Origin: Clostridia bacterium
GTDB lineage: Bacteria; Bacillota; Clostridia; Christensenellales; Aristaeellaceae
DNA length: 64,000 nucleotides
NCBI GenBank assembly: GCA_045658005.1
Contig: JAZOUD010000143.1
Coordinates: 1,130 to 65,129, forward strand
Direction of reading: 5' to 3'
The position numbers were made by a program, and so were the translations under genes. This document shows, in pieces, positions 34,521 to 42,323 of this stretch. Within the stretch, counting starts at the first letter, position 1; each line of letters begins with the position of its first letter. The notes under the pieces were generated by a model. The model searched no databases. It was not told the DNA's origin and worked only from the letters and a program-made list of their open reading frames with translations.

Positions 34521-34549
34521 TTGACAGAGTTACTAATATGTGTTAACAT
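34521..34549 (+). promoter_or_regulatory. Candidate promoter for the riboswitch leader (TTGACA, 17 nt, TGtTAACAT)
   Basis: The -35 hexamer is at 34521-34526 and the extended -10 at 34541-34549, about 25 nt upstream of the riboswitch P1 helix. Confidence 0.4.
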
Positions 34550-34574
34550 AATATTGTCACAATTGCATAGATGT

Positions 34575-34733
34575 CACAGGTGACCTTTCCCAGGAAGGGC
34601 TGAAAAAGGAAGCGGGTGAGAATCCCGCGCGGGGCCGCCGCTGTATTTGGAGAGCAGAAGCCAACAGGTCACTGGTCGAACGACCGGGAAGACGGCGGAT
34701 GCGATGACCCATGAGCCAGAAGACTTGCCTGTG
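34575..34733 (+). promoter_or_regulatory. Cobalamin (B12) riboswitch aptamer
   Basis: Conserved elements: P1 CACAGG/CCTGTG (34575-80/34728-33), GGGTGAGAATCCC (34614-26) and GCCGCTGTA (34637-45). The B12-box-like GTCACTGG...GGGAAGAC lies at 34668-93 and AGCCAGAAGACTTGCC at 34714-29. Confidence 0.85.
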
Positions 34734-34798
34734 CCTGATTTAACATTCGCTTCACGGATCTCTGAAGCCCGGATGGTTTTATTTTGGCTGCAATAAAA

Positions 34799-34836
34799 CG
34801 GTCTGCTGCCGCATGTCGCGGGGGCGGGCCGTTTTT
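34799..34836 (+). terminator. Riboswitch expression-platform terminator
   Basis: A GC-rich 9-bp stem with G-U wobbles (34799-34807 / 34823-34831) is followed by TTTTT (34832-36), 30 nt before the first CDS. Confidence 0.55.
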
Positions 34837-39368: not shown

Positions 39369-39374
39369 CCGCCC

Positions 39375-40163
39375 GTGGCATTGCTTGACATCAAGGGCAT
39401 CGACGTCTCCTATGGCAAGAGCCTGACGGTGAAGAACTGCTCCATCGCCCTCGACCAGGCGAAGATCTGTTCGGTGGTTGGGGAGAGCGGCAGCGGCAAG
39501 ACCACGGTCATCCGCGCCGTGCTTGGCCTGCTGCCCGGCGGCGGCAGTGTCACCGCAGGGGACATCGTCTACGAAAACCGCAGCCTGCTGAAGCTGAGCA
39601 AGGGCGAATGGCGGGCGCTGCGGGGCAGGGACATCTCCATGATCTTCCAGGATTCCGGGGCGATGATGAACCAGACCCGGCTGATCGGCAAGAGCTTCGT
39701 GGAATACATCCGAACCCACGAATCCATTTCCAGGCAGGACGCCTGGAAGAAGGGCGCGGAGATGCTGGGCCGCATGCGCCTTCCGGACCCGGACCGCATC
39801 ATGAACTCCTATCCCTTCCAGCTCTCCGGCGGCATGCGCCAGCGCGTGGGCATCGCCATGGGCATGACCTACCAGCCCAAGCTGCTGCTGGCGGACGAGC
39901 CCACCAGCGCGTTGGATGTCACCACACAGGCCCAGATCGTGAGGCAGATGATGGAGCTGCGGGACGAATACGGCACGTCCATCATCGTCGTTACCCACGA
40001 CATCGGCGTCGCCGCCTACATGGCGGATCACGTGGTCGTGATGAAGGACGGGCGCATCGAGGACCAGGGGGAGCGGGGCTACATCCTGAATGATTCGACG
40101 AATGCCTACACACGCAAGCTGATCGGGGCCGTTCCGTCGTTGGGAGGGAAGCGCTATGTTTGA
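39375..40163 (+). CDS. Opp/Nik-type ABC ATP-binding protein (OppD-like)
   Basis: GTG start. Walker A is GESGSGKTT, signature LSGGMRQR and Walker B LLLADEPTSALD. Confidence 0.85.
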   Translation: MALLDIKGIDVSYGKSLTVKNCSIALDQAKICSVVGESGSGKTTVIRAVLGLLPGGGSVTAGDIVYENRSLLKLSKGEWRALRGRDISMIFQDSGAMMNQTRLIGKSFVEYIRTHESISRQDAWKKGAEMLGRMRLPDPDRIMNSYPFQLSGGMRQRVGIAMGMTYQPKLLLADEPTSALDVTTQAQIVRQMMELRDEYGTSIIVVTHDIGVAAYMADHVVVMKDGRIEDQGERGYILNDSTNAYTRKLIGAVPSLGGKRYV

Positions 40164-41130
40164 CGAAAAGGACCTTCTGCTGGAGGCGCGGCATGTCACC
40201 CGGCGCTTTCCCACGCCCAGCGGCAGGGAACTGGTGGCCTGCAACGACGTGAACCTGAAGCTGTACCGGGGCAAGACCCTGGGGCTGGTTGGGGAATCCG
40301 GCTGCGGCAAGAGCACCTTCATGCGCTTCCTGGTGTGGTTGGATCGGCCCACCGAGGGGGAGATCCTCTACAGGGGTAAGGACATCACCAAACTGAAGGG
40401 ACGTCAGCTGCACGACATGCGCCAGCACATCCAAATGGTGTTCCAGGATCCGTCCACCTCCTTCAATCCCAAGATGAAGATCAGGGACATCGTCTGCGAA
40501 CCGCTGCTCAACTACGGTCGGATCCGGCATTCCCAGAGGGACGCGAAGGCCCGCGAGCTGCTGGAGATGGTGGAGCTGCCCGGCGACTTCGCCGACCGCT
40601 ATCCCCACAACATGTCCGGCGGCCAGCGACAGCGCGTGGCCATCGCGAGGGCCCTGGCGCTGGAGCCGGAGATCGTCGTGATGGACGAGGCCACCAGCGC
40701 GCTGGACGTGTCCGTGCAGGAGACGGTCATCGAGCTGGTCACGCGGCTGCAGCGGGATAAGAACATCACCATCGGCTTTATCTGCCACAACCTGGGCTTC
40801 ATACAGTCCTTCTCCCACCAGATCGCCGTGATGTACCTGGGCAATATCGTGGAGGTCATGCCGGGAGACCAGCTGTCCTCAATGTGCTGCCACCCCTATT
40901 CAAAGGCGCTTCTGAACGCCGTGTTCGACACGAAGATGGACTTCTCCAGGAAAATCGAGCCCATCAAGGGCGAGCCGCCGAGCCCACTGGACGTGCCCGT
41001 CGGCTGCCCGTTCCAGGACCGATGCGACCAGTGCAGGCAAATCTGCCGCGAGCGCAGGCCTGTGCTGACCGAGATCGGCCCGGGCCACGAGGTGGCCTGC
41101 CACCTCTACGGGGAAGGGGGGAGAGCATGA
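40156..41130 (+). CDS. Opp/Nik-type ABC ATP-binding protein (OppF-like) with C-terminal oligopeptide-type domain
   Basis: Walker A is GESGCGKST and signature MSGGQRQR. The C-terminus carries CHPYS...GCPFQDRC. Confidence 0.85.
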   Translation: MFDEKDLLLEARHVTRRFPTPSGRELVACNDVNLKLYRGKTLGLVGESGCGKSTFMRFLVWLDRPTEGEILYRGKDITKLKGRQLHDMRQHIQMVFQDPSTSFNPKMKIRDIVCEPLLNYGRIRHSQRDAKARELLEMVELPGDFADRYPHNMSGGQRQRVAIARALALEPEIVVMDEATSALDVSVQETVIELVTRLQRDKNITIGFICHNLGFIQSFSHQIAVMYLGNIVEVMPGDQLSSMCCHPYSKALLNAVFDTKMDFSRKIEPIKGEPPSPLDVPVGCPFQDRCDQCRQICRERRPVLTEIGPGHEVACHLYGEGGRA

Positions 41131-42323
41131 AGCGCATAATGGCACTCCTGCTGGCCCTTGCGCTGTGCGTGGGTCTCGCCGGCTGCTCCGGGCAGGACGG
41201 CGAGACCGCTGCCCAAACCGACGGCGAGGTTCACAAGATCGGCGTGATCGTCTACAACACCGCCGACGAGGAGGTCATCGGCTTCCGGGAATATTTGAAG
41301 GGCTACATCGAGGACAACTTCGAGATGGTCGATTTCGTGTATTCCGGTTCCATCGGTTCAGCGGAAGAGGAGCTGGCCTTCATCCAGGCGGCCTGCGACG
41401 ACGGCGTCGAGGGCTTTATGTCCTTCCTGAGCTACGACCTGATGGGCGAGGTGGCGATGTGCGAGAAGAACAACGCCTATTACATGCTCGCCTCCGGTAC
41501 CGTCGCCGCGGAGGACTTCGAGGCGGTGCGGGACAACCCCTGGTTCCTGGGCGCCTTTGGACCCGGCCAGCCCTTCGAATTCCAGGCCGGCGCGGACATG
41601 GCCCGCTTCTTCATCCGAGAAAAGACGGGCGCGAACTACTTTGTGCTCAGCGGCGGCGCGCCTCTGGGCAACGAGATGCACTACCAGCGCACGCTGGGCA
41701 TACTCGACGCCCTGGCCAGCGCCTACGGCGCGGTGTTCGACAAATCCCGCACGGAGCTGGCGCTGTCCGACGTGCCCGTGACCGTTTCCACCGACCGCGT
41801 CAGCGTGACGATCTGCCCCGGCTATATCAGCGGCGACGAACCGCTCCAGACGGCAAAGGCGGCCTTCGAGGCCGGAAATTACGACGCCGTGCTGTCGGTG
41901 CTGCCGCCGATGGAGATGGTCGAGGTCATCGGGAAGACACCGCTGGGCGTGGTGGACAGCTACAATACGCGAAACCTGCAGCTGGTCACCGACGGCGTGC
42001 TGCGCTTCGTCGTCGGCAAGTACAACTCGATGATCGGCCCCGCCTTCGCGCTGATGCTCAACGCGGTGACCGGCTACGCCGCGGATTTCCGGGACGACGG
42101 CAGGGCCGTTCAGGTGACCCAGGGCTTCTGGATCTCCGACAGCGCCGAGGATTACAATGAAAAGTATGCCCTGTCCACCAGCGCGGCCATGAACGCCTAC
42201 AACTTCGACGACCTGTCGAAGGTCATTCGCGTATACAACCCGGAGGCAAACCTGAACGCGCTGGTCGCCCTGGCAGAGGCCTGCTCCTATCACGCCGTTC
42301 AGGCGCGGCGGGGGAAGGCGTGA
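41127..42323 (+). CDS. Lipoprotein with periplasmic-binding-protein type-1 (sugar/BMP-like) fold
   Basis: The start overlaps the upstream stop (ATGA). The signal peptide and lipobox are MKRIMALLLALALCVGLAGC, followed by KIGVIVYNTADEEV... Confidence 0.6.
   Translation: MKRIMALLLALALCVGLAGCSGQDGETAAQTDGEVHKIGVIVYNTADEEVIGFREYLKGYIEDNFEMVDFVYSGSIGSAEEELAFIQAACDDGVEGFMSFLSYDLMGEVAMCEKNNAYYMLASGTVAAEDFEAVRDNPWFLGAFGPGQPFEFQAGADMARFFIREKTGANYFVLSGGAPLGNEMHYQRTLGILDALASAYGAVFDKSRTELALSDVPVTVSTDRVSVTICPGYISGDEPLQTAKAAFEAGNYDAVLSVLPPMEMVEVIGKTPLGVVDSYNTRNLQLVTDGVLRFVVGKYNSMIGPAFALMLNAVTGYAADFRDDGRAVQVTQGFWISDSAEDYNEKYALSTSAAMNAYNFDDLSKVIRVYNPEANLNALVALAEACSYHAVQARRGKA

Follow-up and report, generated by a model that had tools for sequence, protein, structure and literature searches.

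A cobalamin riboswitch heads a conserved operon of Clostridia that joins a NikABCDE-family importer to a zinc deacylase and a type-I-fold lipoprotein, with cobalt acquisition as its probable role

A stretch of 64,000 nucleotides (nt) from a Clostridia bacterium (assembly GCA_045658005.1, contig JAZOUD010000143.1, positions 1,130 to 65,129; here called the window) carries, behind a cobalamin riboswitch, seven co-directional genes that encode a zinc deacylase (G1), a complete NikABCDE-family ATP-binding cassette (ABC) importer (G2-G6) and a lipoprotein with the fold of a type-I periplasmic-binding protein (G7). Related loci in rumen and gut Clostridia keep these parts together while their order changes. 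We propose, with a probability of roughly 0.6, that the whole is a cobalamin-repressed operon for the acquisition of cobalt, probably imported as an organic chelate. Coordinates refer to the window and, unless stated otherwise, to its plus strand.

A covariance-model search of the window (cmscan, Rfam) returned a single family above its gathering score, the cobalamin riboswitch RF00174. The match, in the long form of the aptamer, lies at 34561-34746, covers the full model (positions 1-189 of 189) and scores 119.5 bits (gathering score 31.5; E 2.2e-29). An earlier sequence-only reading of this region had recognized the aptamer from the motifs GGGTGAGAATCCC, GCCGCTGTA, GTCACTGG...GGGAAGAC and AGCCAGAAGACTTGCC, all of which were located where it had placed them. 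The P1 helix that it had drawn is also present, CACAGG at 34575-34580 being exactly complementary to CCTGTG at 34728-34733, and the covariance-model alignment puts both segments in P1 columns. A promoter-like site (TTGACA-17-TAACAT with a TG extension, 34521-34549) stands 12 nt 5′ of the aptamer and agrees with the consensus at 10 of 12 positions. On the other side, folding prediction places an expression platform at 34796-34836, where a GC-rich hairpin (13+4 base pairs) followed by TTTTT (34832-34836) forms an intrinsic terminator; its GC core spans 34799-34831 and can be extended to 34796-34835, in line with the hairpin described before. Two different leader segments yield the terminator hairpin in their minimum-energy as well as their centroid folds; a simple terminator scan missed it because of an internal bulge. 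The thermodynamic fold of the whole leader does not recover the aptamer (z about -1.2) and is informative for the terminator only. A Shine-Dalgarno-like AAGAAGG precedes the start codon of G1 at 34867. These features agree with a transcriptional OFF-type cobalamin riboswitch ahead of a Nik/Opp-type importer, as had been suggested, with switching predicted to depend on the ligand. Leaders of the RF00174 type are present in more than 40 related orthologous loci.

The seven genes are tightly packed, with gaps of 68, 62, 4 and 6 nt followed by overlaps of 8 and 4 nt, the last being the ATGA shared by G6 and G7 at 41127-41130. Profile searches reproduced the domain calls of the sequence-only reading: AstE_AspA_cat in G1, SBP_bac_5 in G2, BPD_transp_1 in G3 and G4, and ABC_tran in G5 and G6, the second of these with an oligo_HPY domain. 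Within the importer, G2 (35949-37508) encodes a NikA-like family-5 substrate-binding protein (PF00496, 240 bits), G3 (37571-38527) a NikB-type permease, G4 (38532-39368) a NikC-type permease, G5 (39375-40163) a NikD/CntD-like ABC ATPase (PF00005) and G6 (40156-41130) a NikE/DppF-like ABC ATPase whose PF00005 domain is followed by a C-terminal oligo_HPY domain (PF08352). Both permeases score above the cut-offs of nickel-permease families, G3 with 384.1 bits against 350 for Opp2B (NF045470) and G4 with 330.5 bits against 300 for Opp2C (NF045474). The best NCBIfam match of G2 is Opp5A_nikA (NF045468; 201.3 bits, below the cut-off of 600), and its score with the NikA model TIGR02294 is 165.4 bits, below the cut-off of 393. 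For G5 the best NCBIfam matches are CntF, CntD and NikD, all under their cut-offs. The solved structures closest to G2 are Brucella NikA (4oer) and the nickel-binding protein 3t66. In Escherichia coli NikA, the residues that contact the metal or its chelate are Arg137 and His416. The signal peptide of G2 (35949-36050) ends at AYA/EE and has no lipobox, while an orthologue from a Lachnospiraceae genome (locus L029, 558-650) carries the lipobox MTGC; the host is presumably single-membraned, while its G2 lacks a lipobox.

The solved relatives of G2 also include the heme-binding HbpA proteins 3m8u and 3tpa, so bulky tetrapyrroles are possible ligands for this fold. Together with the cobalamin riboswitch that controls the operon and the amidohydrolase nature of G1, this raises the alternative that the substrate of the importer is an amide-linked corrinoid (cobinamide or an incomplete cobamide, for example) and that G1 acts as a non-homologous analogue of the adenosylcobinamide amidohydrolase CbiZ. 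The nickel-permease scores of G3 and G4 and the proximity of G2 to NikA speak against this salvage of corrinoids or their precursors, which we regard as quite unlikely.

G1 (34867-35880, 337 residues) matches a single Pfam family, AstE_AspA_cat (PF24827; 94.5 bits against a gathering score of 25), and among Pfam families shows no homology to CbiZ. Its best NCBIfam match is DoeB (TIGR02994), at 96.5 bits far below the equivalog cut-off of 402.7. In public databases G1 and G7 go by generic names ('M14 family metallopeptidase', 'putative deacylase' or, for G7, 'hypothetical protein'). In alignments with the solved structures 3na6 and 6twm, the zinc ligands (H67, E70, H154) and the catalytic residue (E215) coincide with their counterparts, and all four are invariant among 24 family members with 46-91% identity to G1. 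The arginine of the NLNR motif is not conserved in the G1 family, which has an invariant P-E-D instead. An AlphaFold2 model of G1 (mean predicted local distance difference test score, pLDDT, 94.4) superimposes on DoeB/EutE (6twm) and 3cdx with template-modelling (TM) scores of 0.80-0.84, and its more distant structural matches include the cyanophycin dipeptidase CphZ, AstE, aminoacylase 3 and aspartoacylase. G1 has no signal peptide and is therefore taken to be a cytoplasmic enzyme. On its modelled fold, G1 is predicted to be a catalytically intact hydrolase for a small N-acyl-amino-acid-like or isopeptide-like substrate. These structural relatives act on small N-acyl amino acids and dipeptides rather than on macrocycles, a further argument against a corrinoid as the substrate.

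A fold common to aminoacylase 3, the CphZ dipeptidase and M14 peptidases would also suit a B12-sparing route of nutrient uptake, in which an Opp/Dpp-like importer brings in peptides, murein peptides or N-acyl amino acids, such as sources of methionine, and G1, as an MpaA- or aminoacylase-like enzyme, frees the amino acid. The Opp/Dpp-family architecture, with its oligo_HPY domain on the second ATPase, fits such a route, as do a distant G1 homologue in Christensenella that adjoins Mur ligase and Ddl genes and more distant G1-MatE-Opp-like clusters in Intestinibacter that have no riboswitch. However, nickel systems, and not Opp, Dpp or Gsi, give the best scores for the permeases and the binding protein, and the riboswitch-linked G1 clade (at least about 43% identity) has a genomic context unlike that of the distant homologues. 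Linkage to an HMA protein, a P1B-2 ATPase, an ArsR regulator and cbiK would all go unexplained. We consider the nutrient route very unlikely. The distant homologues themselves (at most 46% identity; Solobacterium, Christensenella, Synergistaceae) were set aside: their surroundings are unrelated, with sugar genes, a CsoR-CopA unit and Mur ligase/Ddl, and the P-type ATPases found nearby, of the copper type, are probably a coincidence.

G7 (41127-42323, 398 residues) is a lipoprotein with the lipobox LAGC. The sequence-only reading had called it a periplasmic-binding protein of type 1. That assignment stands at the level of the fold, while profile searches gave no support for it: G7 matches no Pfam or NCBIfam family, and distant members of its family reach Peripla_BP_4 with at most 29 bits, below the gathering score of 35.1. 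Exact-sequence look-ups of G7 and of P0116 returned no match. AlphaFold2 predicts a two-lobed alpha/beta fold with moderate confidence (pLDDT 77), and the best Foldseek matches in the PDB are sugar-binding type-I proteins (5ocp, 4ru1 and 2hph; E 7e-7 to 5e-6, TM 0.43-0.58, 12-14% identity). The family is small, with 354 clusters at E ≤ 1e-3 among 1.84 billion representatives in an exhaustive HMMER search. Across the wide family Y56, Y60, G177, G232, K298 and W335 are invariant, and E49, H185, R188, N312 and Q332 nearly so; of the invariant residues Y56, Y60, K298 and W335 carry aromatic or charged side chains, and the family-wide invariant residues include no cysteine/histidine cluster. In their composition the invariant residues look like those of an organic-ligand pocket and not of a bare-metal site.

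Conservation was assessed in about 160 loci. A G1-anchored scan with a G1 alignment, taking one genome per species, gave 80 loci, and a G7-anchored metagenome scan gave 80 further loci, mostly from rumen assemblies; a broad G7 alignment (A4) was too diverse for a scan of this collection, and the narrower alignment A5 was used. Annotation of the loci (numbered with the prefix L) used tblastn and a covariance model made from five leaders that Rfam had verified, and subsets were re-checked with Rfam. Among the 54 species-level loci with a full-length G1, a Nik-type permease pair at 50% identity or more is present in 33, G7 in 23 and the ATPase in 18. Of the 33 loci that combine G1 with the ABC importer, 26 have a cobalamin riboswitch that reads into the operon. 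Three of the other seven are truncated or bounded near the operon: the contig of L019 ends just 5′ of G2, and L048 and L055 begin near the first operon gene, where the leader may fall outside the fetched flank. In the G7-anchored loci the riboswitch heads the operon wherever the 5′ end is present, with strong matches in L093, L102, L118, L126, L137, L152, L166 and L167 and a weak one (22.6 bits) in L155. In all 49 metagenome loci with enough sequence, the G7 gene lies directly 3′ of the second ATPase gene, down to about 35-50% identity. Carriers are rumen and gut Clostridia, including Lachnospiraceae, Oscillospiraceae and Blautia, as well as Desulfosporosinus. In L029 (64-570) a LysR-like open reading frame (ORF) abuts the G2 gene and there is no riboswitch; its position matches that of a LysR-family gene upstream in L004, and the arrangement suggests a change of regulator.

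Gene order has been shuffled into at least six arrangements while the linkage of riboswitch, importer and deacylase persists. The order in the window is riboswitch-G1-G2..G6-G7; Lachnospiraceae have riboswitch-G2..G7-ATPase-G1; a further arrangement is riboswitch-G2..G6-G1, and divergent layouts occur too. In Desulfosporosinus youngiae DSM 17734 the order is riboswitch-G3-G4-G2-G5-G6-G1-MatE, with a G1 of 45% identity. Three loci give G1 a riboswitch of its own (L040, L017 and L076). In L040, from a Faecousia sp. metagenome-assembled genome (MAG; JAZQQD010000137.1), two divergent riboswitches stand back to back within about 520 nt (9383-9902), one of 105.7 bits reading into the ABC genes and G7 and the other, of 73.7 bits, into G1-MatE. 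L017 has G1-HMA-ATPase-MatE behind a riboswitch of 101.9 bits, and the 10 kb upstream contain no importer. The separate riboswitches of L040 and L017 indicate that G1 is a B12-regulated gene in its own right. A further candidate for a riboswitch-G1 unit without a transporter, L068, was rejected as an apparently decayed operon copy in which just the riboswitch and the deacylase gene survive; between its riboswitch and deacylase gene lies a remnant (9683-9940) of the C-terminal, oligo_HPY part of the second ATPase.

This pattern bears on two of the alternatives. The riboswitch that G1 carries in L040 would also suit a CbiZ-like enzyme of corrinoid salvage. A simpler reading takes the operon for a plain cobalt (or nickel/cobalt) pump with which G1, G7, the ATPase and MatE are loosely associated, in housekeeping or detoxification roles, through shared ancestry in one clade. 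Some operons do lack G1 or G7, the efflux unit of the window (described below) has its own promoter and ArsR regulator, and the counts are inflated by shared descent, all carriers being Clostridia-type Firmicutes. Such a loose association is nevertheless unlikely, given that linkage persists through repeated rearrangement (with G1 first, last, after the ATPase or divergent), that G1 acquired or kept a riboswitch in three loci, that G7 stands beside the second ATPase gene in every informative metagenome locus and that the catalytic residues of G1 are invariant. Linkage kept across rearranged loci bears out that the deacylase and the second binding protein are real partners, conserved rather than adjacent by chance, and the orthologous operons in which the G1 clade occurs with a family-5 transporter do carry the riboswitch, at the frequency given above.

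Further genes associate the operon with cobalt. Four loci have, immediately downstream and on the same strand, a gene for a cytoplasmic CbiK cobaltochelatase (PF06180, without a signal peptide), which follows G7 in L097, L098 and L101 and the second ATPase gene in L041. In L167 (metagenome contig ERZ1643251 NODE-171) the order MatE-riboswitch-G2..G7-G1-ATPase is followed by a second operon (14134-19197) with a cobalamin riboswitch of its own, which contains cbiK, two ORFs that match no Pfam family, and genes for a BtuF-like (Peripla_BP_2) and FecCD transporter. This locus encodes the usual type of corrinoid importer separately, next door to the Nik-type operon, and the conserved neighbours of that operon are metal-ion genes (HMA, P1B-2 ATPase, ArsR, cbiK); both observations count against corrinoid salvage by G2-G6. 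The two functions that the sequence-only reading had put forward, CbiZ-like corrinoid remodelling and B12-repressed recycling of peptides or murein peptides, are accordingly not favoured, the first because of the transporter type, the metal-handling neighbours and the separate BtuF/FecCD transporter of L167, the second because of the transporter type and the metal-handling neighbours. That reading had also noted that some B12-linked Nik systems were reassigned to cobalt, and the passage of Zhang et al. 2009 on these systems (PMC2667541, citing Rodionov 2006) does predict B12-linked NikABCDE-family systems as cobalt importers both in Clostridium tetani and in Desulfitobacterium hafniense. We favour cobalt acquisition over corrinoid salvage and peptide uptake because of the nickel/cobalt-type signatures of the transporter, the metal-efflux neighbours and this published assignment.

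While the sequence-only reading was right about the seven genes, the end it had set at 42323 is too short, as the conserved unit continues through an efflux module to 46508. A perfect sigma-70 consensus promoter (TTGACA-17-TATAAT, 12 of 12 positions) lies at 42387-42415, and a scan found no plus-strand terminator-like site between it and the stop codon of G7. It is followed by an ArsR/SmtB-family metal-sensing regulator (42441-42812; PF01022 HTH_5, 70.5 bits; motif EMCVCDI), a small HMA-domain protein of 72 residues with a DCANCA motif, a putative metal chaperone (42837-43055; PF00403, 30.9 bits), a P1B-2-type heavy-metal efflux ATPase (43144-45057) and a MATE-family efflux transporter, MatE (45156-46508; PF01554, 168.8 bits; TIGR00797, 203 bits against a cut-off of 147). 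The ATPase scores 502.2 bits with the cadmium family TIGR01512, above the cut-off of 313.5, and 557 bits with TIGR01525, and its translation contains the CPC, N(x)7K and ADxG motifs. A terminator-like hairpin with a T-run lies between the HMA and ATPase genes (43085-43099), and L126 has a similar strong hairpin at that place.

A small HMA gene is found 3′ of G7 in 37 of 48 metagenome loci, usually followed by the P1B-2 ATPase and MatE. In L005, L017, L040 and L045, as in many metagenome loci, MatE shows linkage to either G1 or the ATPase. Only 26-50 nt separate G7 from HMA in L013, L015 and L045, which makes co-transcription likely in these loci; the window and L126 have a promoter-like site in this gap, and independent transcription of the efflux unit is therefore likely.

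Taken together, these results support a model for the acquisition of cobalt under the control of cobalamin. When cobamide is plentiful it would bind the aptamer of the leader, allowing the terminator to form and transcription to stop ahead of G1; when it is scarce, the seven genes would be transcribed. The importer G2-G6 would then bring in Co(II), probably chelated by analogy with NikA and CntA, for CbiK and B12 synthesis. G1 might cleave the imported chelator to free the metal, or might unmask a precursor secreted by the linked MatE; the split of L040 into ABC-G7 and G1-MatE fits both options, that is, ligand hydrolysis and unmasking for export. Outside the cell, G7 would probably bind the organic ligand, free or metal-loaded. 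The ArsR-HMA-P1B-2 ATPase-MatE unit could eject excess cobalt or by-catch zinc, cadmium or nickel, along with organic remnants. A more elaborate version, which we think rather unlikely, joins these steps into a complete B12-controlled cobalt-ligand cycle: an N-acyl-amino-acid-like chelator, unmasked by G1 or destroyed by it on import, would be secreted by MatE, captured by G7 and the NikA-like protein, imported by the ABC transporter and emptied for CbiK, with the HMA protein and the P1B-2 ATPase ejecting the wrong metals zinc, cadmium and nickel.

Several observations weigh against cobalt acquisition as proposed here. The cluster contains no chelator-biosynthesis genes and the 64-kb window no cob/cbi genes. 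G2 falls short of both NikA equivalog cut-offs noted above, and a type-I-fold binding protein such as G7 is not expected to dock on Opp/Nik-type permeases. The riboswitch is absent from four of the 33 loci with G1 and the ABC genes (L025, L029, L050 and L052), and G1 from the operons L093, L118, L126 and L137. A separate promoter-like site precedes the efflux unit in the window and in L126, so its co-regulation with the importer is not general; where the importer is co-expressed with an efflux ATPase, the combination is counter-intuitive.

The remainder of the window is that of an ordinary spore-forming Firmicute chromosome, with genes for SipL, a C69 peptidase, TrkH, SbcCD, AddAB-like proteins, amylases and enolase. 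A rumen MAG, 'uncultured Clostridiales bacterium RUG11052', is the nearest genome, with an identical gene order and 91-99% identity for each protein. On the opposite strand, 5′ of the riboswitch promoter, lies a gene for a DUF1848 protein (33424-34443, minus strand; 323.7 bits), adjoined by one for a stand-alone GGDEF diguanylate cyclase (32878-33420, plus strand); a second GGDEF protein, with an Fe-S motif, is encoded at 51596-52828. Long minus-strand ORFs of 420-642 codons (34669-35931, 35895-37568, 38466-40352 and 43219-45147) are antisense to real genes and were rejected as artefacts, because the third-position GC content of the plus-strand genes is very high (0.8-0.94) and the codon-position GC profile of these ORFs is wrong. 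Despite tblastn matches in relatives, an ORF of 172 codons at 42629-43147 is an artefact, arising from the ArsR and HMA genes read in the wrong frame. The D. youngiae locus (L005, CM001441.1) includes an FMN riboswitch ahead of a DHBP synthase gene and a T-box (659-805 and 12379-12617). T-boxes were considered as clues to the ligand and discarded: the one in D. youngiae, directly after the MatE gene, has the specifier GCC (Ala) and controls an aminotransferase, and one in Intestinibacter has the specifier CUU (Leu) and lies 6 kb from the G1 homologue.

The system is real, conserved and experimentally tractable, and its distinctive parts have predicted functions. In the literature searched, the described cobalt routes for B12 producers are CbiMNQO, NiCoT and CbtJKL, and the Nik-type route figures only as a regulatory prediction. 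In rumen and gut Clostridia this route comes with fixed and unstudied partners, namely a zinc hydrolase, a Pfam-less binding lipoprotein and an efflux module. On a conservative reading, the analysis puts forward two new candidates for the B12 regulon and improves the annotation of generically named genes. Should an organic cobalt ligand be the target of the hydrolase and the lipoprotein, one could test directly in which chemical form anaerobes acquire cobalt, with handles on B12 production in ruminants and in the human gut. If the full cobalt-ligand cycle were true, it would be the first genetically defined metallophore system dedicated to cobalt and would add two new protein families to the B12 regulon.

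Among known systems, import of a ligand-bound metal by a family-5 protein and Opp-type permeases is found in the staphylopine system (importer CntABCDF, exporter CntE, biosynthesis CntKLM) and in NikA with Ni-(L-His)2; here the chelate is presumed. The staphylopine cluster contains an exporter gene, as this one does, and CntA, CntC, CntD and CntF are among the better NCBIfam matches, all far under their cut-offs. That system is under Zur and Fur control and its exporter CntE belongs to the MFS, whereas the present one has a B12 riboswitch, a MATE exporter and, in place of CntKLM-like biosynthesis genes, a hydrolase. DoeB/EutE and other AstE/AspA enzymes have the fold of G1 and its H-x-x-E...H zinc triad with a catalytic glutamate. 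G1 differs from DoeB in having only about 25% identity over the structure and in the NLNR arginine, and from the AstE/AspA enzymes in a context of metal transport and not of ectoine or arginine catabolism. The adjoining unit resembles CadC-CadA and ZntA-type efflux operons in its ArsR/SmtB regulator, HMA protein and CPC P1B-2 ATPase. Unlike those operons, it is conserved beside a B12-repressed importer, contiguous with it in some loci, and is followed by a MATE pump, and in L017 it stands directly behind a cobalamin riboswitch and G1.

CbiZ is, like G1, an amidohydrolase expected under B12-riboswitch control in Firmicutes, but G1 has no sequence or family relationship to it. The cbiZ operon of Dehalobacter is under a B12 riboswitch, and CbiZ operons pair with FepBCD/Btu-type and not with Nik-type transporters (PMC4285132). 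A review of cobalt transport lists CbtJKL, CbiMNQO, NiCoT, HupE and CorA and does not list this system (PMC7689651). Targeted full-text searches of the literature returned no description of the deacylase, the lipoprotein or the linkage to efflux genes, with a prior mention in older work still possible; the sequence-only reading, too, had known of no described system of this composition. The closest precedent is the group of B12-linked NikABCDE systems, which likewise place a riboswitch ahead of a family-5 binding protein, two NikB/C permeases and two ATPases, include carriers among the Clostridia and, in the published passage on them, owe their cobalt assignment to regulatory linkage only, as here. 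That passage (PMC2667541) covers five transporter genes only, whereas the loci described here add a deacylase, which can carry its own riboswitch, a type-I-fold lipoprotein, an HMA protein, a P1B-2 ATPase and MatE. The riboswitch with its NikABCDE-family core is an existing prediction; the conserved accessory set is the new part.

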